In this document: in pieces, positions 390 to 24,921 of the stretch
Numbering within the stretch: position 1 is the first letter of the stretch
Layout of the letters: the number at the start of each line of letters is the position of its first letter
NCBI GenBank assembly: GCA_965215005.1
Contig: CBDCCZ010000013.1
Span: forward strand, 1 to 28,641
Length of the DNA: 28,641 nucleotides
Reading direction: 5' to 3'
Source of the DNA: Kofleriaceae bacterium
Lineage (GTDB): Bacteria; Myxococcota_A; Polyangia; Haliangiales; Haliangiaceae
The notes under the pieces: generated by a model
What the model was told of the DNA's origin: nothing
The model's input: the letters and a program-made list of their open reading frames with translations, nothing else
The model's database searches: none
Position numbers and translations under genes: made by a program

Positions 390-980
390 GTGGAGCGCGA
401 AGACGAACGGCTGGCGAGCATCGGCCTGCACATCATCGGTGACGAACAGAACCCGATTGTGCGTGCTGAGGTGATTCGCCTTGCGCGGCGGCTCCACGCG
501 ACGAGTCGCAAAGTCATTGGCTTCATTCCAGCGGCCTCGGATGTGGCGATACCGCCGCTCGCGTTGCAGCTTGGAGTCGCACTCACCGAGCTCACCGGCG
601 CCACGATTGCGGTGGTCGACGCCAATGTCCGCTATCCGGGACTCTCAGAGCTGGCTGCCGCTCCAAGTGATGAGCACTCGCTGTTTACGACCCAGTGGAT
701 TCGCGGCTCGCTCGCGCTGCTTACCCCGCCGCATTCCGAGAGCGCCGGTGAAGCAGTGCCCCAGCTCGCGCGGCTGCTACTAGAAGGCGTGGAGCTGTTC
801 GAGCACGTGCTCGTCGACCTCACCGGCTTCGAGCTCCTCGGCGAACACGCCAGTGCCGCGGCTTGTATGGATGCGGTGATTCTCGTTGGACGCGCGCATC
901 ACACGCGCGAGCGCCAGGTGCTCGCGTTCCGCTCGGAGATGCCAGGCAACCGGTTCTTGGGCGTGCTACTCGTAGGCTAA
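390..980 (+). CDS. CpsD/CapB/Wzc-like tyrosine-kinase-domain (MinD-like) protein with degenerate Walker A
   Basis: VVDANVRYPGLS (cf. A' motif LIDADLRRPSL), FEHVLVDLTG (cf. Walker B FDYVIIDTPP), DAVILVGRAHHT and C-terminal FLGVLLVG match the BY-kinase layout; located in a polysaccharide cluster. Confidence 0.65.
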   Translation: MEREDERLASIGLHIIGDEQNPIVRAEVIRLARRLHATSRKVIGFIPAASDVAIPPLALQLGVALTELTGATIAVVDANVRYPGLSELAAAPSDEHSLFTTQWIRGSLALLTPPHSESAGEAVPQLARLLLEGVELFEHVLVDLTGFELLGEHASAAACMDAVILVGRAHHTRERQVLAFRSEMPGNRFLGVLLVG

Positions 981-983
981 GAG

Positions 984-2102
984 ATGCTCCAGCGCCTCCG
1001 CGACAAGAACCTGCACACCTGGATGCGCGGCTACACGCGCCATCTCATCGATAAGCGCCGCCAGCGCCGCGCGCCCTCGATGGAAGGGCCCCGCCACCTG
1101 TTGTTTGCGCTATGCGATCATTACGAGCCGCTATGGGCGCGGCCGAGTCCCGAGCAGGGCCGCGATCGCGTCGACCGCTGGCATCAGCAATATCCTCAGC
1201 TCGTCGATCGATTTCGCGACGCCAACGGCCGCACCCCGCGGCACAGCTTTTTCTTTCCCGGCGAAGAGTATCGACCCGAGTTTTTGCTACCGCTCGCAGA
1301 CCTCGTGCGCCGCGGCTATGGCGAGGTCGAGGTGCATCATCATCATGATGGCGACACCGCCGCAAATCTGCGCGGCAACTTAGAGCGCTACTTGCGCGCC
1401 TTCGCCGAGCACGGTCACATCAGCCGCGATGCGAGCGGCCGCTATCAGTGGGCCTTCATTCACGGCAATTGGTGCTTGGCCAACGCCCGCCGCGATGGCC
1501 GCTGGTGCGGCGTAGACGAAGAGCTTCCGCTGTTGTTCGATGCTGGCTGCTACGCCGACTTCACGTTTCCCGCCGCCCCCGACGAGAGCCAGCCCGACAT
1601 CGTCAATCAAATCTACTGGCCAACCGGCGACTTGCACAGGCGTCGCGCCTACGAGAGTGGCGAGCGCGCTCGCGTTGGTAAGCGCATGGACGACCGCTTG
1701 CTGATGATTCAGGGGCCCATTGCGCTCGCGCGCCGCCCCGGGTCGCTCAAGGTGCGGATCGAGAGCGCTGCGCTCGATGCCGTCGATACGCCGAGCCCGG
1801 CGCGCCTACGCACGTGGGTCGAGCAAAATATCCACGTCGCCGGCCGTCCCGAATGGCTGTTCGTCAAGGTTCACACCCATGGCGCCCCCGAAGCCAACGC
1901 AGCAACGCTACTGGGCGATGGCGGCCGCACGCTGCACGACGTCTTGACGCGCACCTACAACGATGGCGTTCAGTGGAAACTGCACTACGTCACCGCCCGC
2001 GAGATGTACAACGTCGCGCTAGCAGCGATGGACGGCCATCACGGTGACCCAGCGGCGCACTTCGATTATCACGTCGCGCCGCCGCCGATCGCCCGCGCCT
2101 AA
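984..2102 (+). CDS. Hypothetical protein, His-rich, possibly polysaccharide-deacetylase-like metalloenzyme
   Basis: 372-aa ORF starting 3 nt after the upstream stop; motifs CDHYEP, EVHHHHDGD, FIHGNWCL, VKVHTHG suggest metal binding. Function is inferred from context only. Confidence 0.7.
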   Translation: MLQRLRDKNLHTWMRGYTRHLIDKRRQRRAPSMEGPRHLLFALCDHYEPLWARPSPEQGRDRVDRWHQQYPQLVDRFRDANGRTPRHSFFFPGEEYRPEFLLPLADLVRRGYGEVEVHHHHDGDTAANLRGNLERYLRAFAEHGHISRDASGRYQWAFIHGNWCLANARRDGRWCGVDEELPLLFDAGCYADFTFPAAPDESQPDIVNQIYWPTGDLHRRRAYESGERARVGKRMDDRLLMIQGPIALARRPGSLKVRIESAALDAVDTPSPARLRTWVEQNIHVAGRPEWLFVKVHTHGAPEANAATLLGDGGRTLHDVLTRTYNDGVQWKLHYVTAREMYNVALAAMDGHHGDPAAHFDYHVAPPPIARA

Positions 2103-6951: not shown

Positions 6952-6980
6952 GAAAGAAATGGGTGTCAAGATCCAAATTG

Positions 6981-7376
6981 ATGAACCCGTCCAGTTCCCC
7001 AAGGGCTCCCGCATCCCGCGCGCAGTCACCTGACGCGATGGTCGTGCTCACAAAGGCGCTGTTTCGCGTGGCCGATCGGCTTGCACTCAGTGGGACTGAG
7101 CTGGCTGAAATTCTCACCGTTAGTCCCGCGACGGTATCGCGGCTCAAAGGAACGGAGCGCGCGCTGGCGCTCGGCTCTGCCGAAATGCAACTAGCTGCCC
7201 TGCTGGTGCGGGTCTATCGAAGTCTTGACAGCCTACTCAATGACGATGAGAAGGCGCGCGCGTGGCTCGTTGCTGAGAACTCGCACATCGGCGGCAAGCC
7301 CCTCGAGCTCATCAAAACGATACGCGGACTCGTCGCTGTTTCAGACTACCTCGACGCCCTGCGCGGCAAGCTCTGA
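6981..7376 (+). CDS. Type II antitoxin, Xre/MbcA/ParS family (HTH + toxin-binding domain)
   Basis: HTH LSGTELAEILTVSPATVSRL; C-terminal VYRSLDSLL...ARAWLVAENSHIGGKPLELIKTIRGLVAVSDYLDALRG typical of MbcA/ParS/Xre; directly upstream of a RES gene. Alternative start 6963. Confidence 0.9.
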   Translation: MNPSSSPRAPASRAQSPDAMVVLTKALFRVADRLALSGTELAEILTVSPATVSRLKGTERALALGSAEMQLAALLVRVYRSLDSLLNDDEKARAWLVAENSHIGGKPLELIKTIRGLVAVSDYLDALRGKL

Positions 7377-7396
7377 GGCTTGCTCTCTCGCCACCA

Positions 7397-8152
7397 ATGA
7401 ACCTATGGAAACGCTGCGACGGCGTGCAGCACATCCGACGCCTCAGCTCCACCCCATGGCGCGTTGTCGATGCGCAACATGTGAACGCCACACGCAAGCT
7501 GGTCGATTCTGATCACGAGCAAGAGCTCCTCGAGCAAGTCTTAGATGCCGCCAAGCCCCCGGCTCCGCGCGGGGCCCGGTTCGACCGCCTGCATTATCTT
7601 CTGACCACGCCATTCCGCTATCCTCCACTGTCTCACGGCTCGCGCTTCGGCACCCGCGATCAGCGCGGACTCTGGTATGGCTCTGAAACGCTCAGCACGG
7701 CTTTTGCGGAAGTCGCCTATTACCGTTTCTACTTACTAGCGGGCACCGCCGCCGACCTGCCGCCCCTCAACGTCCACCTGTCGGCGTTTCGCATTCCCGC
7801 GAGCGGAAATCGCGGCGTCGACCTTACGCGTCCGCCGTTCGATGCTCACGTCCGCGCCCTCACCTCCGTCACGAGTTATGCCACGACTCAAACCCTCGGC
7901 CGTGCAATGCGTGACGCCGGTGTGCAGCTCGTTCGATACACCTCCGCTCGCGATCCCGATCGCGGCAACAACGTAGGCCTGTTCGAGCCCGTCTTCTCTA
8001 AAGACGCTCCCGGCGTGCCCGAAACGTGGCTCTGCACCACCGAGTCCACCGTCGTCGATTTTCGTGCCGTCAATATCGCCAACCGCCGCTCCTATTGCTA
8101 CCCGCGCACCCTGTTTCTCCATAAGGGCGAGTTGCCCAGCCCTAGCAGCTGA
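7397..8152 (+). CDS. RES-domain toxin (NAD+ phosphorylase/ART-like family)
   Basis: R (WRVV), E (AFAEVAYYR) and S (RYTSARD) residues; LHYLLTTPFRYPP..GSRFG motif; 20 nt downstream of the antitoxin. Confidence 0.9.
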   Translation: MNLWKRCDGVQHIRRLSSTPWRVVDAQHVNATRKLVDSDHEQELLEQVLDAAKPPAPRGARFDRLHYLLTTPFRYPPLSHGSRFGTRDQRGLWYGSETLSTAFAEVAYYRFYLLAGTAADLPPLNVHLSAFRIPASGNRGVDLTRPPFDAHVRALTSVTSYATTQTLGRAMRDAGVQLVRYTSARDPDRGNNVGLFEPVFSKDAPGVPETWLCTTESTVVDFRAVNIANRRSYCYPRTLFLHKGELPSPSS

Positions 8153-11913: not shown

Positions 11914-12038
11914 AAGCGCCGTGGACGTAGAGGCATCGGATGCTCCGCCCGGCTTTTTGGGCGCCAGCGCGAGAAACCGCCGGCCCCTCGCGCTACCTTA
12001 GCGGCGTCTCCTGCGCAATGCCCATGGCATGGGCGTCT
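11914..12038. repeat. 125-bp direct repeat, copy 2
   Basis: 122/125 identical to 9488-9612, same orientation, offset 2426 bp; ends 32 nt before the HiPIP-like ATG. Confidence 0.95.
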
Positions 12039-12070
12039 GCGATGACCTTCAGCTGCGAAAAGGAAGCACC

Positions 12071-12322
12071 ATGGCAACTGATCCTCTCCCCGTTCCCGAG
12101 CCCAAAGAAATCGATGAGAAGAAGGCCCTCGAGCTCAAGCACTTGGCCGAAGATGCCGTGCTCAAGGGGCAACCCTATGGCGACGAGCGCTGTGACAACT
12201 GCTTGTTCTATCTCAACCCAGACGAGAACATTGCCTACTGCTGGCATCCCAAGCTGCGAATCCTCGTCGGTGGCAACTGGTGGTGCCAGTGGTGGGAAGC
12301 CATTCCCGAAGACCAGAAGTAA
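12071..12322 (+). CDS. HiPIP-like small 4-Cys iron-sulfur protein lacking a signal peptide
   Basis: ATG 12071 with AAGGAAG RBS; C-x2-C-x12-C-x14-C followed by QWW (ERCDNCLFY...YCWHP...VGGNWWCQWW) resembles the HiPIP cluster-binding pattern. Confidence 0.7.
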   Translation: MATDPLPVPEPKEIDEKKALELKHLAEDAVLKGQPYGDERCDNCLFYLNPDENIAYCWHPKLRILVGGNWWCQWWEAIPEDQK

Positions 12323-12358
12323 CGGAGTTCCGCAGCTCGGCGTGCATGAAAGAAGCGA

Positions 12359-13090
12359 GTGATGAGCAGTGAGCGGCGCACAATCGATGATGCGCTGATC
12401 GCACGCGCGACCGAGCAGGACGCCGCGAAGGCCGTCGATACGGCTGGCGCGGCGTCCGCGAGCCCGCGAATGACAACCGACGGCGCCCGATCCGCGGCCG
12501 CCGTCGAGCACGCCGAGCTGGTGCTCGAGGTGCTGTTAGCGGCTCTCGAGCCTTCCAGCACCGCGCTCGAGCTAACGAACGTGCCGCTCGCGAGTCACGA
12601 GCGGCGCGCGGTGACGGCGATTTGGGAGGCGTTCGCAGATCCGCACAGCGCCTCGCTTGCGGGGATGTCGGCGATTGCGCGCAGTAAGCAACTCAACCGC
12701 GGTCTGGCCATTCTCTACCCACAAATCGCGCGCGCCGAGGGGTTGGCCCGCGCGCTTGGCATGCGCTCATTTCTAGTCAAGCGAGCGCGGCTGGCGGAGC
12801 GTATCGCGGCTCTTCGTCACCAGATAAAGCAGGCGATCCTGGTCGAGACCGCGATCAAGTTTCGTAAGAAAAAGCCCGCCGCTAAACCACCCGCGGATGA
12901 TGCGCAGAACGATGATGAGAATGACAAAGGCGCGGACGCAGAGGCCCATATCGAGGAGCCCGAGCACGACTCTGCTGCAGCCACTGCGGCCGATGATGCC
13001 CACGCCGTTGGCGAGGACGAAACTCGCGAAGCGAACCTCGATGACGGCCGCGCCGACAGCACCCGTAAGCGAGATGGAGACCCGTCGTGA
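12359..13090 (+). CDS. Hypothetical protein (helical core, basic patch, acidic low-complexity tail)
   Basis: 243-aa ORF; its stop overlaps the downstream GTG (GTGA at 13087-13090). No recognised motif. Confidence 0.65.
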   Translation: MMSSERRTIDDALIARATEQDAAKAVDTAGAASASPRMTTDGARSAAAVEHAELVLEVLLAALEPSSTALELTNVPLASHERRAVTAIWEAFADPHSASLAGMSAIARSKQLNRGLAILYPQIARAEGLARALGMRSFLVKRARLAERIAALRHQIKQAILVETAIKFRKKKPAAKPPADDAQNDDENDKGADAEAHIEEPEHDSAAATAADDAHAVGEDETREANLDDGRADSTRKRDGDPS

Positions 13091-15159
13091 AGCCGGCGCA
13101 GCTGGCGCCGCGGATCGAGCTGGTTCGACTGCGTGCGGAGGCGGCGCTGCTCGCGCGGCTCGACGCCGGATTCGGTTTTGCTGAGGGGCACTTGGCGTCC
13201 GAGCAGTTCATCGAATCACCCACCATCCGCGAGGCGCTCAGCGATGATCCGCTCCGGCCACGTGGACTGTTCAGCGAGCGCATCGCGGCGTTGACGCTCG
13301 CCATCGCCGCAGCAGAGCGGGTCGAGTCGGCTCCACTCGCCACGCTGGCGCAGCGCTTCGTTCTTGATGCGCCGGCGCAGGCGCTTCTGGCCTGTGGCAT
13401 CGCCTATGAGCTCGATGCCGACGTTCGCGCATTATGCCAACGATTAGCGCCGAATCGAATACCTGGCCTCTACGTCGATACCTGCGCGAGCATCGAGCCG
13501 GCGCTACGCGGTCCCGCTTCACTCACTGCGCTAGCCGCCGATGCACCGCTGCGCGCTGGTGGGCTCGTCACGCTCACCGGCCGCGGCGCGCGCGCGACGC
13601 AGGCCCTCGAGCTCGACCCAGACCTCCTCGACTGGCTCCTCGGCAGTGAGAGCGCACCAGCCTCGCTTGCGGGGTTCTTGCACCTCGGCGCAGCTGTCGC
13701 GCCGTCGTCGCTAGCTGGTGTGCTGCCGCAAACCTTGGGCGCCGAGCTCGCTGCCCTCGCCGAGCGTCTTGCCGGCACCGATTCCACTCCCATGGTGCTG
13801 CTGCAGGGTTCGATCGGCTCTGGCCGGGGCGCCAGCGCCGCCCGACTGGCAGCGGCGCTGCAGCGGCCGCTCGCCCGCCTCGAGCTGCGTCCAGTGCTGC
13901 AGCACGGCAGCGACGCTGCCGCGCTCGTCCGGCGCGCGTTGCTTGCGGCGCGCCTTCGCCACGCTCTGATCTACCTCCCCGACCTCGACGCGCTCGCCGC
14001 TGGTGACGGGCCCAGCGAGGCCATCGCTTTCCAGCTCGAGACGCACGCCGACATCCTAATCGTGGCAACTGCGCAACGCGGCATACCGCAGTTGCCACTG
14101 ACGCGCCCGTACCAGCTCGTTCGCCTCGCAACGGCCGATGTTGCGGCTCGCACCGCCGCTTGGCGGAATGCCCTCGCGGCGCTGCCAACAGCGCTCGAGC
14201 AGCTCGAGCCCGAAGAGCTCGCGAGCCGCTATGTGATTGGCCCCGGAGCAATCGCCGACGTCCTCGCCGATGCCCGCGCGTTTACCACCGCCAGCGGCCA
14301 GCCCTTGCGTCGCACGCATCTCGAAGAGGCCATCGGCCGGCGACTGACGCTGCGGCTCGGTCCCTTCGCGAGCGTCGTCAGCCGCCGCGCCCGCTTCGAC
14401 GACATGGTCCTGCCTGATGACGTTTACGACACGCTGGCAGACATGATTGCGATGATTCGCCAGCGTTCCACCATCCTCGAGCGCTGGGGTTACGCGCAAC
14501 ACCTGGATTTGCCACGCGGAGTCTCCGCACTGTTTTCCGGCGCGCCCGGCACCGGCAAAACCATGGCAGCAAGCGCTATAGCGGGGGTTTTGGAGCTCGA
14601 GCTGGTGCGCGTGGATCTCTCGGCAGTGGTCTCCAAGTGGGTCGGGGAGACCGAGAAGCATCTAGCGATCATTTTTGACCGTGCGCAAACCGCCAACGCC
14701 ATGCTGCTCTTCGATGAAGCCGACAGTCTATTTGGCAAGCGCACCAAGCAAGACTCTGCACAAGACCGCTACGCCAACCTCGAGGTCAACTACATCTTGC
14801 AAAGGATGGAAACCTTCGATGGCATCAGCGTCCTCACCACCAACCTCGAAGGCGGAATCGACCCCGCGTTCCTTCGCCGGCTCAACTTCCGGGTTCGCTT
14901 TCCCGAGCCCGACTTCGATGAACGCCGCGCGCTGTGGCAGCGGCTCTTGCCCCCTGCGCTCGTCATCGACGGGCAGGTCGACTGGGACCTTTTGGCTAGT
15001 CGGTTCGAGATGAGCGGAGGTCACATTCGCAACGCCGTGGTCCGCGCAGCCGTCATTGCTGCGCGCGCCGAGCGGAGCGTCTGCGCCCGCGACTTGCTGG
15101 TCGCGGCGCATCACGAGTACCTCGAGCTCGGCAAGGTCATGCCCTCGCTTTCCGATTGA
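13087..15159 (+). CDS. AAA+ ATPase, Afp15/Pvc15-like (degenerate first AAA module, intact second module)
   Basis: GAPGTGKT (14539-14562), VDLSAVVSKWVGETEKHL, LLFDEADSLFGKRT, DRYANLEVNYILQRME, IDPAFLRRL, SGGHIRNA; degenerate first P-loop GSIGSGRG (13807-13830). Confidence 0.88.
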   Translation: MKPAQLAPRIELVRLRAEAALLARLDAGFGFAEGHLASEQFIESPTIREALSDDPLRPRGLFSERIAALTLAIAAAERVESAPLATLAQRFVLDAPAQALLACGIAYELDADVRALCQRLAPNRIPGLYVDTCASIEPALRGPASLTALAADAPLRAGGLVTLTGRGARATQALELDPDLLDWLLGSESAPASLAGFLHLGAAVAPSSLAGVLPQTLGAELAALAERLAGTDSTPMVLLQGSIGSGRGASAARLAAALQRPLARLELRPVLQHGSDAAALVRRALLAARLRHALIYLPDLDALAAGDGPSEAIAFQLETHADILIVATAQRGIPQLPLTRPYQLVRLATADVAARTAAWRNALAALPTALEQLEPEELASRYVIGPGAIADVLADARAFTTASGQPLRRTHLEEAIGRRLTLRLGPFASVVSRRARFDDMVLPDDVYDTLADMIAMIRQRSTILERWGYAQHLDLPRGVSALFSGAPGTGKTMAASAIAGVLELELVRVDLSAVVSKWVGETEKHLAIIFDRAQTANAMLLFDEADSLFGKRTKQDSAQDRYANLEVNYILQRMETFDGISVLTTNLEGGIDPAFLRRLNFRVRFPEPDFDERRALWQRLLPPALVIDGQVDWDLLASRFEMSGGHIRNAVVRAAVIAARAERSVCARDLLVAAHHEYLELGKVMPSLSD

Positions 15160-16051: not shown

Positions 16052-16092
16052 ACGCCGCAGACGCATCAAAACGAGCAAGCATCGCTACGCAG

Positions 16093-16121
16093 GGCTCATC
16101 CTCCCCTTCGTTGGGTGAGCC
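16093..16121 (+). terminator. Stem-loop downstream of the SDR gene (possible terminator, no U-tract)
   Basis: GGCTCATCC / GGGTGAGCC 9-bp stem with one G-U pair and an 11-nt loop, ~40 nt after the stop. Confidence 0.3.
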
Positions 16122-16239
16122 ATCACGCGCGTCCCGCTCCCACCAACGACGACAAGGCCTCCCCGAACGGCAAACGCGAGTTCCGGGAGTCGCGCCGACA
16201 GCTTGACCGATTCGGCGCTGAGGCGAGACATTTACTGTC

Positions 16240-17334
16240 ATGGGTGGGGGCACGAGGGGGTCGCATGCCGTGACGCCGTGGGTGGAGTGTCTGGAGGAGG
16301 GCGCCGCGCGCCTGCTCGTCTGTCCCGCCCAGGCGGACGCGTTCGCGGTGCTAACCGCCTATGCGGAAGCTCGCGAGCAAACCGTGGTGGCCACCGAGCT
16401 TGCGGCTGCCGGAAAGAGCAGTGACCTTCGCATCGAGGTGTTGCGGGCGCTCGCCGACGTCGCTCGGCGCTTATGGCCGCGGTGGTGCGGGACCGCCGCC
16501 CGCGAAAGCAGCTCGGCGCAGTCGCCCGCGGAGCTGTTGGCGATCGCCGAATCCACGCCAGGCGTGTCGCCGGCGTGGCTACATGTTGCGTGGCGGTGCG
16601 CAGCGAGTGGCCATCTACCGAGCGACGTGGGATTTAGCCGCGCGGTGCACGCGGAGCAGCTCGCACGAGTCCTAGCAACGCGAATCCTGCTGGTCATCAC
16701 GATGGAAGGCGACGCTTCCGGCGCGCGCCTGCACGGATTAGCGTGCACCGCAGATTGGCTCGCACGCCAGACCCGCTCGCGGGTGATCGTCGTCCTGCCC
16801 CCGCACCTCGCAAGCGCAGCCGAGCTCGACTCGATCTCCTATGGAGCGTTTTGGCTAGAATGCTCCGCCAGTGATGCTGACGCCGGCATGGCACTGCCGC
16901 CATCGGAGTCGCGCGGTGCGAGCGAGGTCGAGCACGCGCAGAGCGGCGAAGCGGTCGGATTTGGGCTTTGGCCAATCTTGGGCCAGCCGCATCCGCTGAG
17001 TCCGGGGGAGCAGCAGCTTGCCGCGGCGCTCGCTCGCGACCCTGTGCTGCGCGACTTGTTTCGCTTCAACGTGCCGCTGAGTACGCGCAAAGGCTCGCGC
17101 GTGGTGGTCGATCTGCTGTGGTCAGACGGCAAGCTGGTAGTGGAGGTCGACAGCTTTCGCTACCACAGTGGCGGGCGCGCGTTCTGTCACGACCGGCAGC
17201 GCGACTACGAGCTGATGATCACCGGCTATCGGGTGCTTCGGCTGCCGCACCAGGAGGTGGTGGCCAACGTCGGTGGTGCGCTCAGCAAGCTTAGAGACGT
17301 GGTGCAGTTTCTACGGAAGGAGAAGGAACAGTGA
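16240..17334 (+). CDS. Protein with C-terminal DUF559/Vsr-like endonuclease domain and uncharacterised N-terminal region
   Basis: SPGEQQL...FRFN...VVVDLLWSDGKLVVEVDSFRYHS...DRQRDYELMITGYRVLRLPHQEV is the DUF559 pattern. Start may be GTG 16270 (GAGGGGG upstream). Confidence 0.85.
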   Translation: MGGGTRGSHAVTPWVECLEEGAARLLVCPAQADAFAVLTAYAEAREQTVVATELAAAGKSSDLRIEVLRALADVARRLWPRWCGTAARESSSAQSPAELLAIAESTPGVSPAWLHVAWRCAASGHLPSDVGFSRAVHAEQLARVLATRILLVITMEGDASGARLHGLACTADWLARQTRSRVIVVLPPHLASAAELDSISYGAFWLECSASDADAGMALPPSESRGASEVEHAQSGEAVGFGLWPILGQPHPLSPGEQQLAAALARDPVLRDLFRFNVPLSTRKGSRVVVDLLWSDGKLVVEVDSFRYHSGGRAFCHDRQRDYELMITGYRVLRLPHQEVVANVGGALSKLRDVVQFLRKEKEQ

Positions 17335-18065
17335 GTTTTCAAGCAACGTCCGGTCAGGCGCTTTTGATTTGGCGGATGATGTTCGTCCCCGGGATGGAAG
17401 AAGTAGGTACCAAGACGGCGCCAAACAAGTTGCGCGCGCCGCTGGTCCGCGAAGGCATCCTCGAGGGCTATGTCGGCAAGAATGAGAAAGGCAATAGGGC
17501 ACAGCGCTTTCGGCTCACAGACCACGCGTGGGCCTGGGGCGAGGCCAACCTCGACACCAAGCTCAATCCTGCGCCAAGCGCCGGCCCGGTTCTGGCAGCA
17601 GTTCTGGCGCGCGTAAAGACCTTGCTAGCCGCGCACGGGCTTCCGCTGGCGGAGCTGGTACGCGAGCAGGACACCGCGCACGAACAAGCCGATTCGCACA
17701 GTCACGCGCAGCACGACAGTAACGGCCAGCACGCAACGCACGACACCAATGGCCAGCATCCGGCGAAGAACGCCGCAATCGGCAACGGTAGTAGCGCGAG
17801 CGAGCCGGCACCTGCGCAGATTCGCCGCGCCTATCTCGCCCACACCCGCGGCCAATTCAACGAATCGCTGTCGCTCGAGGTCCTGCGCCGATCGCTACCA
17901 GAGTTGCCGCGCGAGAGCTTTGATGCCGCGTTATTGCAGCTTTTCCGTACACAAGCCGTCGTGCTGTTCCCCGAGGACAACACGCGACAGCTCACCGCCG
18001 CCATGCAGCATTCTGCATTCGAGCTATCGGGTGAGCCCAAGCATTATCTAAAGCTGGAGCGCTAA
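17331..18065 (+). CDS. Hypothetical protein, probable tandem winged-helix DNA-binding domains
   Basis: Overlaps the upstream stop (GTGA) and has an AAGGA RBS. N-domain LVREGILEG...RFRLTDHAWAW and C-domain IRRAYL...LSLEVLRRSLPELPRESFDAALLQL look wHTH-like and are joined by a His/Asn-rich linker. Confidence 0.75.
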   Translation: MSFQATSGQALLIWRMMFVPGMEEVGTKTAPNKLRAPLVREGILEGYVGKNEKGNRAQRFRLTDHAWAWGEANLDTKLNPAPSAGPVLAAVLARVKTLLAAHGLPLAELVREQDTAHEQADSHSHAQHDSNGQHATHDTNGQHPAKNAAIGNGSSASEPAPAQIRRAYLAHTRGQFNESLSLEVLRRSLPELPRESFDAALLQLFRTQAVVLFPEDNTRQLTAAMQHSAFELSGEPKHYLKLER

Positions 18066-18066
18066 T

Positions 18067-21000
18067 ATGAACGAGCTGACGGTTCTACGCGGCGCCAATC
18101 TGCAATGGACGATGCACCTCGAGCGCGTGTGGCGCGATGTGGACTATCACATCCCCGGCTTTCACGAGCACGTTCGCCAGCAAGTCCTCTACGAACTCGA
18201 AGCGCTCGCGGACGCAGACGATTCTCCTTTGGGTGTCGTCATCACGGGGGAGGCAGGCTCGGGAAAGACCCATCTCGTTGGCTCCATCCGCAGTGCGTGC
18301 GCCGCAAGCCATGCCTATTTCGTGCTCGTCGACATGACCGACGTTCGCGACTTTTGGGAAACCGTGCTGCTCGGATATCTCAAGTCGCTGCAGCGCGAGC
18401 AAAGCTCGGGGCAGCCGCAGTTCCACCGGTTGCTCGCGAGCCTCCCCGGAGTCTCAGTCGAGCCCGAGAAACTCGCCAATCTCCGGCCGCCGCGCCTCAT
18501 CAACGTCACCGATAAGCTCATCCGCGACGTCGGGCGCGGCGCGCACAATCAGCGCATGCTCGAGCATCGTGACGTCTTGCGGGCGCTGGTGCTCTTGGCT
18601 TCCAGCGAGATGCAAATCCAGGCGGTGGGATTCGACTGGCTGCAAGCAACCGGCATCAGTGAAAGTCAGGCGCTCCTTCAGGGCTTCAGTCAGGCGCAGC
18701 CGCATCCGCAAAGCGTGGTGCGAGGTCTCTCTTGGCTGATGAGCTTATCGGGGGCTACCGTGCTGGCTTTCGATCAGCTCGACGCGATCGTCGCCGAGCA
18801 CAACCTCGCGGCCGGTGTCGACGTGAGCGAGATGGCTCCTGGTCTCGCCGCCCGGGTGCGCCTTTCCCAGTCGATCATCGAGGGAATTGGCCGCGGCTTC
18901 ATGGAGCTTCGCGATACCGCCAGCCGTACTCTCATGGTGGTCTCGAGCCTGCAGTCGACGTGGGATATCCTCAAGAAGACCTCGGGTCGAGCCGCCGCCG
19001 ATCGGTTCGGCAGCGAGTACAACCTACAAGCCCAGGTTTCCTCTGAGCTGCAGCGTCTGCTCGTCGAACGCCGCATGGCGGCTACCTTCGCCAAGCATCA
19101 CTTCTCGCCCCCCTATCCGAGCTGGCCGTTTCGCCCAACGGCCTTCGAAGATGTACACCTCACGCCGCGGCTGCTCCTCAAGCGCTGCGACGAGCATCGT
19201 CGGCGCTGCTTACGAGAAGGCAAGATCAGCGAGCTAGAGGCGTTTCAAAGCAATGGCAGCAACGCGCCTGCCGCCGTAGACGACGACGCCATGAGCGCGC
19301 TCGATCAAGCGTATCGCGCAATGATGACCGAGGCACAACCAGCCGAAATTCTCGCGGAGAGTCGTGAAGACGAGCTCGGCGAGCTGGTAGGGAAGGTTGC
19401 TCGACTGATCCCCGAGCAGTACATCATCCCGGATTCACTCGACCTGTTCGTCGACGATCACTTCAAGAGCCGCCAGGCGTACGAGCCGCTGCACGTGCGA
19501 GTGCGCCTCGTCGACCATCGGCAAGATGATCGCGAGGAGCACTTATCGCTGCGGGTATTGCAGCGCGCGCACCACTTGGCGTTTCAAGCCCGGCTCCGCG
19601 CGGCCATCACTGAGTCGGGAATCGACGAAGGCCTCGATTTCCGTAAGCTGGTCATCCTGCGCCATGGCGAGGCGCCCCACGGCACCGTCACGATGCAGCT
19701 ACTCGACCGCCTAAATGCCCGCGGCGGCCAACTGGCTGCACTCGAAGAAATCGACAGCCGCCGATTGTGGGCGCTCAACGAGCTGCGCCGCAAGGCCCCA
19801 GCGCAGTGGCACGCGTGGCTGCAAATCCGCCGGCCGGTCAACGACATCGCCGCGCTCGAGCCGCTCACGCGCTGGGTGCACGGGTTGCTCGAGGACAAGC
19901 GGCCCGGCACGACGACGCAGCCGCCACCTCTTGCCGACAAGAGCACAATCGATAGCGAGCGCGACACGGATGCCAAACCTGTGCCCCCAGCGCGGGACCA
20001 ACCAATTGCCGCAACTGCGATGGACCCCACGCGCTTGCCGATTGGCAGCGCTTACGCGGGCAATCAACTGCTCAACCCGATCTTCTTCGAGACAGCAGCA
20101 CTCACCAAACACCTCGCCGTGCTCGCCGGCGCCGGCTCGGGTAAGACGGTGCTGGTGCGGCGTCTGATAGAAGAAGCCGCGCTCCGCGGTATCCCTTCGC
20201 TGGTGGTCGATATCGCCAACGACTTGGCGATGCTGGGTGATCCATGGCCCGAGCCGCCGCCGCAGTGGCACGAGGAAGACGCCGCCCTGGCCAAGCAATA
20301 TCGCGAGCGGGTGGACGTCCGCATTTTCACGCCCGGTCGCCAATCCGGCAATCCCATGGTGCTGCAGCCACTGCCCGACCTCTCCAGCGTGCGCGACGAC
20401 GCCCAGGAGCTCGACGCAGCTATCTCCATGGCTGCAGACAGCCTGCGCCCCATCGTCGTCACCGGTGGCGGACATGCGAAGTCGGTGCAGGAAGCCATTC
20501 TCCGCAACGCGCTCAACTTCCTCGCCCGCTCCGGGCAAAGCGACTTGAATAGCTTCGTCGAGCTCTTGAGCGACGTGCCGCCGGAGCTCGTCGAAGGCTA
20601 CAGGCGGGGCAGCGATCAGGCGCAGAAGATGAGCGAGGCATTACGCGCGCGCATGACTCTAGACCCGCTGCTCAAAAGCGAAGGCACGCCGCTCGATCCA
20701 GCGCTGCTCTTTGGCGGCAGCAAAGATGGTCGCACACGTGTCTCGGTGATCAATCTGGCTGGACTCGGCGGACTGGAAAGCCAGCAAAACTTCCTGAACC
20801 AGCTCACGATGACGCTGTTCTCGTGGGTAAAGAAGCATCCGCTGAGCTCGCAAACTGGGCTCGGCGGGTTGTTCGTCATCGATGAGGCCAAGGACTTCGT
20901 GCCCGCCAACAGAGCCACCATCTGCAGCCAAAGTATCATTCGCGGCGCAGCGCAGTTCCGCAAGTATGGCGTGGGGATGGTGATCGCCACGCAAGAGCCA

Positions 21001-21273
21001 AAGAGCATCGATCATCGAATCATCGCCAACTGCTCGAGCCAGATTTATGGCCGCGCCAACTCACCAGCGGCTATCGAGACGGTGCGCGACCTCATTCGCC
21101 AAAAGGGCGGCAGCGGCAACGACATCTCTCGCCTTCAGACCGGCCAGTTTTACGTCTACAGCGAAGGATTCCGTGCGCCCATCAAAGTGCAGTCGCGGCT
21201 GTGCCTCACTCATCACCCCAACAATCCCCCGAGCGCGGACTGGGTGGCCGAGCGCGCAGCTCGCGATGCCTGA
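18067..21273 (+). CDS. Large double-ATPase: N-terminal AAA+-like P-loop domain fused to C-terminal HerA/FtsK-superfamily (DUF87/DUF853-like) ATPase
   Basis: Walker A GEAGSGKT (18247-18270) with Walker B VLAFDQLD; second module KHLAVLAGAGSGKT (Walker A 20125-20148), VVDIAND, FVIDEAKDFVP, RKYG, IATQ. ATG lies 1 nt after the upstream stop. Confidence 0.9.
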   Translation: MNELTVLRGANLQWTMHLERVWRDVDYHIPGFHEHVRQQVLYELEALADADDSPLGVVITGEAGSGKTHLVGSIRSACAASHAYFVLVDMTDVRDFWETVLLGYLKSLQREQSSGQPQFHRLLASLPGVSVEPEKLANLRPPRLINVTDKLIRDVGRGAHNQRMLEHRDVLRALVLLASSEMQIQAVGFDWLQATGISESQALLQGFSQAQPHPQSVVRGLSWLMSLSGATVLAFDQLDAIVAEHNLAAGVDVSEMAPGLAARVRLSQSIIEGIGRGFMELRDTASRTLMVVSSLQSTWDILKKTSGRAAADRFGSEYNLQAQVSSELQRLLVERRMAATFAKHHFSPPYPSWPFRPTAFEDVHLTPRLLLKRCDEHRRRCLREGKISELEAFQSNGSNAPAAVDDDAMSALDQAYRAMMTEAQPAEILAESREDELGELVGKVARLIPEQYIIPDSLDLFVDDHFKSRQAYEPLHVRVRLVDHRQDDREEHLSLRVLQRAHHLAFQARLRAAITESGIDEGLDFRKLVILRHGEAPHGTVTMQLLDRLNARGGQLAALEEIDSRRLWALNELRRKAPAQWHAWLQIRRPVNDIAALEPLTRWVHGLLEDKRPGTTTQPPPLADKSTIDSERDTDAKPVPPARDQPIAATAMDPTRLPIGSAYAGNQLLNPIFFETAALTKHLAVLAGAGSGKTVLVRRLIEEAALRGIPSLVVDIANDLAMLGDPWPEPPPQWHEEDAALAKQYRERVDVRIFTPGRQSGNPMVLQPLPDLSSVRDDAQELDAAISMAADSLRPIVVTGGGHAKSVQEAILRNALNFLARSGQSDLNSFVELLSDVPPELVEGYRRGSDQAQKMSEALRARMTLDPLLKSEGTPLDPALLFGGSKDGRTRVSVINLAGLGGLESQQNFLNQLTMTLFSWVKKHPLSSQTGLGGLFVIDEAKDFVPANRATICSQSIIRGAAQFRKYGVGMVIATQEPKSIDHRIIANCSSQIYGRANSPAAIETVRDLIRQKGGSGNDISRLQTGQFYVYSEGFRAPIKVQSRLCLTHHPNNPPSADWVAERAARDA

Positions 21274-21303
21274 GCCGGCAGGCCCGCATGCACGCCCGAC
21301 TCG

Positions 21304-22135: not shown

Positions 22136-22909
22136 TCAGCGGTGACCCGTGCTGCTCTCGGCAGCCTCTTCGACCCTGGCCTGCGCCAACGCCCGAGCGT
22201 ACGCACGACTCACCCACCAGAACGCGAGAATCAAAGCAGCGACCACCAGGCCAATGGCGCCATACTTGCCGACGGGATGCTGCTGCATGGTGCGCAATCC
22301 ACTCAGAGCCGCCTCGAAGTTGACTGCCGCAAAGGCCATCAACATGCCGCCGAGCAAACCGCCAGCGCTCACCGCGGCGATGACCGTGCGGCGCTCGAGA
22401 CCGAGCAGAATCCCCAAGAACGTCCCGACCATGGCGCCGGTGCCGGCGAACGGAAACAATACGAACAACACCACGCCGATCACGGCGGCGCGCCGGATCC
22501 GCGGATAGGCCCGCAACACCAACCGCGCATTGCTCTGGATATGGTGGAGCCAACGCTCGATACGGCGGCAGCGATAGAACACCTCGAGCCCGTACACCAC
22601 CACCAGAACCGTATAGGTATCGAGTAGCCAGACCACGACTCCGAGCTGCCATGGGCTGAAGTTGCTAGCGCCAGTAACGCCCCAAAGCGGCAGGAACTTA
22701 CCGGCCACGACGACCGAAACTGGAATGATGCCGAGCAGCTCGATGGTGGCGTTTGGCGCGTAGATAAGCCCCAGCACCAGCGCCACGCCCACCAGCCCGG
22801 CGGCAATTCCCATCACGAAAAGACGCTCACGCCAACCAGCCGCCAAGTCGGCGGCAGGTGGCGCAACCAAGGCGGCTGTGGCGTGGGAGGTATGCGTTGA
22901 ATCGCTCAC
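22136..22909 (-). CDS. Putative small multi-drug export family membrane protein
   Basis: [27 protein letters not shown] signature; several TM helices. Confidence 0.78.
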
Positions 22910-23040
22910 GGAGATTGCTCACTGTCTCAACGCCGGTGACGCGGGCTCTATTGCTGAGCATAGCGAGGCCGCACCGCCGAACCAGAGCCGCGCGCAAAAA
23001 CCTTCATCACCGTCATTGGCCGCGCTCCGGCGGGTGCGCT

Positions 23041-24921
23041 ATGACGCGACCGCGCATGCTTCTCTTTGCTCCCTTTCGCGTCCTCGGCGCGGCGCTCATT
23101 GCCATGTTCCTGGGGTTGGCGGGATGCGGCGCCGTGAGCGCTGCACCCAAGATCACGCCTCTGGGGCCGCCGTCGCTGCGCGGTGGCTCGCTCCTCGAGC
23201 AGCCCGCGGCGTTGCCCTACATCGGTCGCGGCGCCATCGCGGCGATCGCCGCGGCGCGTGGCGATGCGCTTGCCTCGCAGGCGCTGGCGCAGCTATGGCC
23301 AGCGTGGCGCGAAGCGCTCGCAGCGCTCGACGCGCTCGGCCCGGCAATCGCCGCGAATGCCCCCGTGGGGCTGGTGTACTTCGATCTCGAAGCCGGCAGC
23401 ACCGCCGCGTTTGCGACGCTGCGCGACCCGCAAGCGTTTGCGGAACATCTCGGCACCTCCAAGAGATGGCGACCGACGCGCGCCGGTGACGCGCGCATCT
23501 TTGCCGACCAGAAGGACTCACAGCGAGCGATCGTAGTTCGCGATCGCAACGTCTTTCTAATCACCAGCGCCGTCGAGAGTCGGCGCAGCCTCATCGCCAT
23601 CGACCTGGCGACCGCCGACAAACCCGAGATGCTCGCGCATTCGCCGGAGTTTCAGAAGTTGGTCGCGGAGCTGGGCTTTGGCACTGAAGTAGCCGGGTTC
23701 GCGGCTCTCGACGTGATTGGCGCCAGCGCAGCCGAAGCGGTTGCAGCGTGGGAGTTCGGGCTGGTCGATATCGTTAGCGGCGCCGCCCATCGCGTCGATG
23801 CCGCGAAAGCCCGCGGCGCCAGCCCCGCAGACCTTGCGCCGCTGCAGGCTGAGCTGCGTCGGCAAAATCAATGGCTCGAGCGAGCCCGCACTATCGCCGC
23901 CGCCGAGAAGACCTTGGCCACCGATGTGGTGAGCGCATTGGGCACGATCGTATTCGGTTTGGACACGACCGAAGGTCCGCTGCGCCTCAAGGCAATCACG
24001 TATCCGCGCGCGGGCTCGCTCGCCGACGAGCTCGTCGCCTCCAGCGCCACCGTCGAGCCGAGCTTGCCCGGTGCGCCGCTCGCGGCGACCGCGAGGCTCA
24101 CGCCAGCGACGCTGCGACGGGTGGTGCGGATCGCGTGGGCTGAGCTTGGCCTCGAACCAGCCGCTGCCGAACAGGCGGTCGCCGCGGCACTCGCGGTGCC
24201 GCCAAGCGATCTATGGGCGAGTTTCGATGGTCGAGTGGAGCTGGCCATCGCCGCCCAAGGGTTTTCGTTGCGGCTCGGCTTGATGCCAACTTCGGCCATC
24301 GCCGGCGAGCACGCGCTAGCCCTCGGCGAGCGATCGATAACGCTGCGTCGCGAGGGCGAGCAGCTGGTGGTGCAGCTCGGTCAAGACCTCGCGAGTGCGC
24401 CTCAACCGGCCGCGTTGCCCGCGGGACGACCGTCGCTGCTGCTGGCGGTCACGGCGGAGTGGCTAGCGCCAGCCACCGACGCCGCAGAGGCCGCGCCGCC
24501 GACGCCGCTTCGCGACGACAACGACGATGTGCCGTTCTCCGACCAATATCTGCGTATCGAGAATGAGCTCGGTACCATCGATAAGAGCATCGTCACCGCT
24601 TCTGCGCAGCTGGCCCAGCTGCGAGCAGCCCACGAGCGCGCCGCGGCGACGGCACTGGGGGCACTGGTGCTCGCGGCGGAGCGCGACGGCGCCGCTTTGC
24701 TGGTGTATGGCGGCTTGCGCGCGAGGCGCGGTGGCGTGGCGCAAATGCTTCAACAGGCGGATGCGGAGCGCAAGCGGTTGGCCAAGCAGCTCGATGCGGC
24801 GGCGAATGCGCTCACCACCGCTCGCGCCCAGCGTCGCGCGCTGTACGAGCAGCTGCTCGAAGTGCGAGTCAAAGACATCGAAGCGCACGATCGCGCCGCT
24901 GTGCCGCGAGGCAAGAAGTAA
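23041..24921 (+). CDS. Hypothetical Ala-rich lipoprotein with coiled-coil segments
   Basis: ATG 23041 gives a basic N-region, hydrophobic core and lipobox LAG-C. The track start (22858) would overlap the divergent gene. Confidence 0.75.
   Translation: MTRPRMLLFAPFRVLGAALIAMFLGLAGCGAVSAAPKITPLGPPSLRGGSLLEQPAALPYIGRGAIAAIAAARGDALASQALAQLWPAWREALAALDALGPAIAANAPVGLVYFDLEAGSTAAFATLRDPQAFAEHLGTSKRWRPTRAGDARIFADQKDSQRAIVVRDRNVFLITSAVESRRSLIAIDLATADKPEMLAHSPEFQKLVAELGFGTEVAGFAALDVIGASAAEAVAAWEFGLVDIVSGAAHRVDAAKARGASPADLAPLQAELRRQNQWLERARTIAAAEKTLATDVVSALGTIVFGLDTTEGPLRLKAITYPRAGSLADELVASSATVEPSLPGAPLAATARLTPATLRRVVRIAWAELGLEPAAAEQAVAAALAVPPSDLWASFDGRVELAIAAQGFSLRLGLMPTSAIAGEHALALGERSITLRREGEQLVVQLGQDLASAPQPAALPAGRPSLLLAVTAEWLAPATDAAEAAPPTPLRDDNDDVPFSDQYLRIENELGTIDKSIVTASAQLAQLRAAHERAAATALGALVLAAERDGAALLVYGGLRARRGGVAQMLQQADAERKRLAKQLDAAANALTTARAQRRALYEQLLEVRVKDIEAHDRAAVPRGKK

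Follow-up and report, generated by a model that had tools for sequence, protein, structure and literature searches.

How does a machine that couples a nuclease to a DNA motor spare the DNA of its own cell when it carries no methylase? The question is raised by a cassette of three genes (the trio) at positions 16240 to 21273 of a 28,641-nucleotide stretch of a Kofleriaceae genome (assembly GCA_965215005.1, contig CBDCCZ010000013.1); this whole stretch is referred to below as the window. We consider it probable that the trio is a stand-alone, methylase-free nuclease-motor directed against invaders (phage or plasmid), of the Orc/CDC6-coupled "HerA/FtsK capture" kind, and with a minimal BrxA/BrxB/BrxC-like organization. 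The domain content of the three proteins, their conserved catalytic residues, the order of their genes, the sporadic distribution of the cassette, and the variable site into which it is inserted are direct observations. An earlier interpretation of the window made without database searches (the sequence-only reading) had arrived at a loader/motor/nuclease complex, and this is the architecture that we, too, infer to be the best one.

Three proteins, two ATPases, and a dead one

The three genes are co-oriented on the plus strand, as are all of the cassette features given below. Gene 1 (16240 to 17334, 364 amino acids) encodes a Vsr/DUF559 endonuclease preceded, in the same polypeptide, by an inactive AAA+ domain of the ORC/CDC6/STAND type; gene 2 (17331 to 18065, 244 amino acids) encodes a probable tandem winged-helix DNA-binding protein; and gene 3 (18067 to 21273, 1068 amino acids) encodes an ORC/CDC6/STAND-like AAA+ module, a basic central domain, a Pro/Thr linker, and a HerA/FtsK ATPase. 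Genes 1 and 2 share the GTGA at 17331 to 17334, and a single nucleotide (18066) separates genes 2 and 3, exactly as had been described from the sequence. A second candidate start for gene 1, a GTG at 16270, is preceded by a purine-rich stretch and coincides with the beginning of the family profile match, and this may be the true start. Each gene is single-copy in the source genome (6.2 Mb, 93% complete), whose Ser/Thr kinase-TPR, TSP3, trypsin, and P-domain proteins point to a lineage of myxobacterial type. The statement that the window holds neither a methyltransferase nor PglZ was borne out by a Pfam scan of its 22 open reading frames (ORFs).

Gene 3 carries the motor. Pfam matches AAA_16 at residues 37 to 155 and DUF87/HerA at residues 675 to 906, and two Walker A motifs are present; the two different P-loop ATPases that the sequence-only reading had recognized are therefore real, but the altered Walker B motif of the first had escaped it. 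The N-terminal AAA+ module (18067 to 19266) has the Walker A motif GEAGSGKT (residues 61 to 68) and a Walker B motif of the form hhhhDQLD, in which a glutamine replaces the usual catalytic glutamate in 98/98 aligned homologs. G61, G64, G66, K67, D236, Q237, D239, and R368 are invariant across the same alignment and R313 is nearly so; we assigned R313 to the arginine-finger position and P367-R368 to the sensor-2 position from established AAA+ anatomy. The module also contains an insert and matches the NACHT, nSTAND, and Hda families, and a PDB profile search returned generic AAA+ matches only. At the C-terminal end of gene 3, the HerA/FtsK motor (20032 to 21216) follows the variable Pro/Thr linker and bears AGAGSGKT, hhhhDEA, a Q-x-RKYG arginine finger, and an ATQ sensor. 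Since its motifs are invariant in the 98 aligned homologs (K693, D939, E940, Q963, R965, K966, Y967, and Q976), the motor is evidently intact. Its DUF87 match scores 49 bits against a cut-off of 23, its top structure matches are HerA, and neither FtsK_alpha nor a HAS barrel was matched by Pfam. Roughly 245 residues separate its Walker motifs, a long insert that reads as helical from the sequence.

Between the two ATPases lies a basic central domain of ~180 residues (~430 to 610; 19354 to 19896), rich in conserved Arg and His and devoid, in the alignment, of an acidic catalytic triad. It gave no significant Pfam or PDB match. Its position and residue pattern make it a candidate DNA-binding domain of inactive restriction endonuclease (REase) fold; as a paralogue of the gene 1 nuclease it was rejected, hhalign having found nothing (probability under 0.5%).

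Gene 1 supplies the nuclease. The sequence-only reading had correctly seen a DUF559/Vsr-like endonuclease here: DUF559 is matched at residues 287 to 354 with 28.4 bits (Pfam cut-off, 20.6), within a Vsr-like C-terminal domain that spans residues 252 to 360 (16993 to 17319). E257, D291, E302, D304, D318, R321, D322, and R334 are invariant in 42/42 family members and H309 is kept in 41/42, so that the catalytic residues are, by this alignment, intact and conserved. What had been missed is the N-terminal domain (residues 5 to 209; 16252 to 16866), an AAA+ fold of the alpha/beta P-loop type in which a helical insert follows strand 2. In the structure model, the N-terminal 205 residues adopt an ORC/CDC6/TnsC-type AAA+ fold, and neither model nor alignment shows a Walker A motif, a Walker B acid, or a conserved arginine finger. 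With lost Walker motifs, a STAND/ORC-Cdc6 fold, and no C-terminal helical bundle, the domain resembles an inactive STAND (iSTAND) of the BrxB type. Fold searches placed it structurally nearest to TnsC/MuB-clade proteins; BrxB was absent among the matches listed, which does not of itself exclude a likeness to BrxB, and residues 1 to 215 gave no usable match in the Atlas.

Gene 2 is the least certain of the three. Its alignment shows two conserved domains of ~90 residues with a variable linker between them. Pfam does not match gene 2 itself; among its family, 7/44 members match DUF6293_C, a C-terminal winged-helix family (best E, 1.9e-5), and one of its three best Atlas clusters is automatically named "MarR family." PDB and Pfam profile searches found nothing significant and brought out no relation to DndG/SspB. 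A winged helix-turn-helix (wHTH) assignment is likely on this basis for the N-terminal half, and to that extent the earlier claim of a two-wHTH protein stood; the second wHTH is putative. The family is large, with 2815 clusters at 50% identity (E<=0.001). We also considered genes 2 and 3 as paralogues and rejected this, hhalign again finding nothing (probability under 0.5%). The C-terminal domain of gene 2 recurs in tandem (six matched stretches) in an unrelated 1351-residue protein, P0141, in which we discern by eye SAP-type-like repeats and an ADP-ribosyltransferase-like N terminus; given this recurrence, the C-terminal domain appears to be a mobile module.

Comparison with known and predicted systems

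A computational study (PMC10853773; Rakesh, Aravind & Krishnan 2024) predicts, in its main text, Orc/CDC6-coupled "HerA/FtsK capture" neighborhoods that are mobile and in which an Orc/CDC6 ATPase is joined to a HerA/FtsK ATPase, a wHTH, and two REases, one active and one inactive, the whole being carried on a single polypeptide or divided among several. The inactive REase forms an insertion that separates the AAA+ core from a C-terminal wHTH; the active REase comes from one of two families; some neighborhoods add a gene with two to four wHTH domains; and one subset has a HerA without FtsK-alpha and with a four-helix insert. The function that its authors propose is the interception of invader DNA. 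With these neighborhoods the trio shares a probable ORC/CDC6/STAND-type AAA+ and a HerA/FtsK ATPase in one operon, an active REase (here the Vsr/DUF559 domain of gene 1), a separate gene of putative multi-wHTH type, a HerA that lacks FtsK-alpha but has an insert (here that of gene 3), a mobile neighborhood, and the absence of a methylase. Judged on this domain list, the trio closely fits the main-text description, and the sequence-only claim that the system was undescribed has to be given up at the level of prediction. Differences remain. The main text of PMC10853773 lists no inactive STAND fused to a nuclease, no Vsr, and no DUF559, nor does it describe a Walker B Gln in a HerA-coupled AAA+; in gene 3, an inactive REase and a C-terminal wHTH are at most putative. 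Relative to that main text, the new element is the fusion in gene 1 of a dead AAA+ domain to a Vsr/DUF559 nuclease, which its figures and supplement may already show.

A second comparison bears on how the trio might work. Its layout appears to parallel BrxA/BrxB/BrxC of bacteriophage exclusion (BREX) systems, with HerA added and the methylase absent. According to the accessible text of PMC13326643, the inactive AAA+ domain of BrxB binds the BrxC AAA+ domain at its ATP site, an ATP-dependent interaction stabilized by a Walker B E-to-Q change, and bridges the nuclease PglZ, whereas BrxA modulates DNA binding. The accessible parts of PMC12839542 and PMC13326643 indicate that the BREX core and the BRC systems, like the trio on our reading, combine an ATPase of ORC/CDC6 type with a wHTH protein and with a nuclease to which an inactive STAND is linked; BRC systems have HerA in addition (PMC12839542). 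In contrast to the systems described there, the trio has no PglZ, PglX, BrxL, GNAT, or TGT, its dead AAA+ shares a polypeptide with the nuclease, which is Vsr-like, and its other AAA+ shares one with HerA. A three-stranded cap after strand 4, as in BrxB, is missing from the gene 1 model; type-2 iSTAND domains, as far as that literature goes, typically have no cap either. Brx models matched only 1/46 gene 3 homologs (BrxD). We rejected membership in BREX, BR, or BRC: there is no PglZ, methylase, or PT module among the 22 window ORFs, no PglZ among the 294 flanking ORFs scanned at other loci, and no recurrent fourth gene.

The remaining candidates were rejected as well. Sir2-HerA (Nezha), DUF4297-HerA, and NurA-HerA resemble the trio in that an effector stands beside a HerA motor bearing the motifs RKYG and ATQ (PDB 8xau, 4d2i, and 8wiv), but the likeness is confined to the motor (21 to 36 bits against NCBIfam cut-offs of 600 to 970), the effector differs, and an AAA+ module takes the place of the HAS barrel; no Sir2, DUF4297, or NurA partner and no HAS domain match was found. 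MADS, in the accessible texts of bioRxiv 10.1101/2023.03.30.534895 and PMC13662399, combines MAD6 and MAD7 with MAD8 and in most cases has an N6-methylase as well; measured against these, the trio lacks the methylase and every other mad gene. Although mad8 is the best PADLOC match for 46/46 gene 3 homologs, its model (PDLC04140) is a generic FtsK/HerA-type profile that matches an FtsK-sized ORF in 389/401 genomes and in 14/14 controls, the listed matches scoring 136 to 155 bits against 100 for gene 3. Because it matches nearly every genome, a lone mad8 match is uninformative. MANTIS (10.64898/2026.09.23.753747), as its accessible text has it, is methylase based and different from the trio.

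A rare but widespread cassette of conserved order

If the three genes form one system, they should travel together, and to a large extent they do. Among 8000 candidates scored we found 555 gene 3 homologs, of which the best 120 are 40 to 61% identical and nearly all full-length, with names from Cyanobacteria, Chloroflexota, and Polyangiaceae; a profile of the gene 3 center adds Alphaproteobacteria and Planctomycetes. The names include Rhodopseudomonas palustris, Methylobacterium, Beijerinckia, Planctomyces SH-PL62, and Leptolyngbyaceae. WP_068741540.1 is a homolog of gene 3 and WP_068741542.1 one of gene 1. For gene order we took the best 80 of 520 confirmed loci from a metagenome scan for gene 3 and added a Desulfobacteraceae locus (L001), which came from a scan of genome contigs with the gene 3 protein alone that yielded two loci, one of them a weak HerA fragment. 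Of these 81 loci, counts were made on the 43 with at least 2200 bp upstream of the gene 3 ORF. All three genes occur in the same order and on the same strand in 34/43 loci (31/40 without three near-identical copies). Gene 2 stands beside gene 3 in 40/43, and gene 1 is present, mostly translationally coupled, in 34/40 of the loci that have gene 2. The nine exceptions are two loci with insertion sequence (IS) elements upstream of a truncated gene 3 (L014 and L029), one with neither partner (L049), and six with genes 2 and 3 only. The full trio was found additionally in Tsukamurella, Nonomuraea, Methylobacterium, and one further genome (G016). No recurrent fourth gene was seen across the loci, and the trio is, in sum, a rare but widespread bacterial cassette. 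The conservation of its gene neighborhood, which the sequence-only reading had named as a check, thus extends over many phyla.

Closer to home, the cassette is decidedly patchy, in keeping with a non-core element: gene 3 is in 2/40 relatives and in 0/400 phylum genomes (a strict first look, and so a floor), and gene 2 is in 0/300 class genomes. In the window the cassette sits between unrelated convergent genes, an SDR gene upstream and an M50B-peptidase gene downstream, which bound a site (16052 to 21303, strandless) that is empty or differently filled in relatives. The two genes adjoin in three relatives (G006, G008, and G014) and stand 3.5 kb apart with unrelated cargo between them in a fourth (G011); in the remaining genomes that have both, they are on different contigs. 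The cassette therefore occupies a variable site. The cargo of G011 (L091, 4934 to 8198) consists of a flavin-reductase-like ORF, a lipoprotein-like ORF, and a 621-residue ORF that by eye resembles DUF4157 proteins.

Around the cassette, a search for att sites, terminal repeats, a promoter, and a terminator turned up chance-level repeats and sites only, and the window site has no flanking repeats, integrase, transposase, or relaxase. There was no match among INPHARED phages, and 0/91 pattern matches in IMG/VR were confirmed. PLSDB gave three matches (an 11.85-Mb record, a record with ribosomal-protein operons, and a 1.57-Mb replicon) that look like chromosomes or a chromid, and a phage or plasmid mobility module was rejected accordingly. 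In Tsukamurella (L089, 7517 to 13237 of NZ_LR134464.1), the trio lies between rpsQ and rplN ribosomal-protein operons with a VapBC pair alongside; that record, listed as a "plasmid," resembles a chromosome fragment.

A working model for the trio

We take the BREX findings on BrxA, BrxB, and BrxC, as far as the accessible text of PMC13326643 reports them, as the working model for the trio, whose assembly, trigger, and phenotype we infer as follows. Gene 3 would oligomerize through its HerA ring and pump double-stranded DNA. The AAA+ tier of gene 3, in which Gln naturally takes the place of the Walker B Glu, would bind ATP and hydrolyze it slowly; for that reason we propose for it the role of an ATP-locked clamp or scaffold on DNA, which the basic central domain may aid. 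The putative wHTH pair of gene 2 would target this clamp to DNA or restrain it there, much as BrxA regulates BrxC. The dead AAA+ domain of gene 1 might dock on the open AAA+ face of gene 3 in the manner of BrxB on BrxC, and so bring the Vsr-like nuclease to the translocated DNA for nicking or cutting; the dead-ATPase module thereby suggests a route by which the nuclease is recruited. Without a cognate methylase, self/non-self discrimination must rest on other cues. These could lie in the structure of the DNA (its ends, or intermediates of replication or transfer) or in foreign modification; alternatively, infection could be the trigger, and the cutting that follows would be abortive.

A more pointed form of this proposal, possible in our view and held tentatively, is an anti-phage machine, likewise methylase-free, in which a naturally hydrolysis-impaired ORC/CDC6-type ring is stacked on an active HerA pump in one polypeptide and the nuclease is licensed only when the gene 1 dead AAA+ caps the ring. 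If true, this would amount to a BREX-like BrxA/B/C switch in minimal form, coupled directly to a DNA translocase, and it would offer the simplest tractable system in which to study the activation of nuclease effectors by inactive STAND domains. HerA/FtsK capture systems have been predicted computationally, and our search of the literature by title and the start of the abstract, most subscription papers and bioRxiv supplements lying outside it, found no experimental study of the trio. The family offers a compact exemplar, three genes in 5 kb, present in culturable, non-pathogenic bacteria, with K67, Q237, K693, E940, and R965 of gene 3 and D291, E302, and H309 of gene 1 as mutational handles. 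The dead-AAA+/nuclease fusion beside a natural Walker-B-Gln ATPase would make the BREX question of STAND-ATPase-nuclease coupling approachable without the six-gene BREX machinery.

A number of results weigh against an anti-invader complex of this kind. In the proteins, hhalign found no profile similarity between the gene 1 dead AAA+ and the gene 3 AAA+ (probability under 0.5%), by which they were rejected as paralogues, and the dead AAA+ lacks the conserved arginine finger that would be expected from BrxB as described in the accessible text. In the gene-order data, six metagenome loci and one genome (G033, 71% complete, in which gene 1 was not found) have intact genes 2 and 3 without gene 1, and no substitute nuclease was seen among the nearest ORFs of gene-1-less loci. 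In a quick tree of 50 rows, made without a formal test, the six gene-1-less rows fall in separate branches, each near gene-1-bearing kin; this suggests repeated loss of gene 1, and the nuclease may accordingly be dispensable. In the composition of the cassette, GC content (0.62 to 0.67) and GC at third codon positions (GC3, 0.72 to 0.78) match the host, by which recent transfer is ruled out and the cassette is no recent arrival.

The neighborhood is no kinder. Most neighbors are housekeeping genes, and most copies of the cassette are alone among them. We used Pfam to scan the 191 nearest flanking ORFs of 64 loci (picked by a simple codon model, with no more than three on either side), leaving Uma2-like and IrrE genes out of the count, and found 13 clear defense genes in 8/64 loci: WYL, DNA methylases, HsdS with an AAA_13 gene, three HNH, PIN, MazE, McrB-N, and TIR. 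At a cut-off of 1e-8, defense genes number 12/191 proximal against 1/103 distal ORFs (p=0.038), a figure to be read with the caveat that genes within one locus are not independent; the matched control within the same 26 loci gives 3/123 against 1/103 (p=0.63). The association with defense islands, for which the sequence-only reading had proposed a check, is thus weak. At one locus (L013, 13201 to 14259), the gene 3 homolog overlaps, at its stop codon, with a gene for a WYL-WCX regulator.

The seven loci with genes 2 and 3 and no nuclease gene nearby are L018, L044, L058, L068, L076, L082, and L088; in L076, 1.5 kb of other ORFs lie between the two genes.

Competing explanations

Vsr is a mismatch-repair nickase, and a HerA motor joined to a nuclease follows the logic of NurA-HerA. 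Both facts lend themselves to an accessory DNA repair or end-processing machine in which host DNA with breaks or mismatches is passed by HerA to the Vsr-type nickase and the AAA+ and wHTH parts are loaders, and the chromosomal, ameliorated state of the cassette, its mostly housekeeping surroundings, and the WYL overlap at one locus would all suit such a role. A repair function is nevertheless hard to square with an extremely sporadic distribution, with neighbors that differ at nearly every locus, with a nuclease that has apparently been lost repeatedly, or with the lack of any mre11/rad50/nurA or dcm linkage among the 294 flanking ORFs, and we judge it unlikely.

The nearness of the gene 1 dead AAA+ to the TnsC/MuB clade raises another prospect: that a TnsC/MuB-like target-selection ATPase, a DNA pump, and a nuclease make up a selfish or domesticated mobile-element module, spreading or maintaining itself (as an addiction module, for example) and not defending its host. 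The cassette does occupy variable intergenic sites, and integrase or IS genes adjoin it in ~5/64 loci. The bareness of the window site (no transposase, relaxase, or terminal repeats), the want of a recurrent fourth gene, and the absence of the cassette from the phage and viral collections INPHARED and IMG/VR all speak against self-spread, and in L014 and L029 the IS elements occupy the place expected for the front of the cassette; we hold this account to be quite unlikely.

That genes 2 and 3 are instead the functional core, as a DNA-binding regulator or nucleoid-organizing ATPase pair to which the nuclease is an optional add-on, strikes us as very unlikely, since gene 1 accompanies gene 2 so regularly (34/40) and is usually translationally coupled, even with seven loci that have genes 2 and 3 but no nearby gene 1 (the six aligned ones keep the invariant motifs of both ATPases) and with a large gene 2 family (2815 clusters) whose C-terminal domain is tandemly repeated in the unrelated P0141. 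Cyanobacterial RcaD/RcaG may be an analogous pair.

Other features of the window

Beyond the cassette, three ORFs (196, 372, and 687 residues) at 390 to 2102 (+) and 22858 to 24921 (+) have no Pfam match. A toxin-antitoxin pair, an Xre/MbcA antitoxin with a RES toxin by Pfam, lies at 6963 to 8152 (+), 8 kb upstream of the cassette. Three overlapping ORFs occupy 11940 to 15159 (+), two of them without a Pfam match and the third an AAA+ ATPase that bears a winged-helix variant (PF22977) and may resemble the Afp15/Pvc15 ATPases of contractile injection systems. The PF22977 ATPase adjoins the SDR gene syntenically in G006, G008, and G014.

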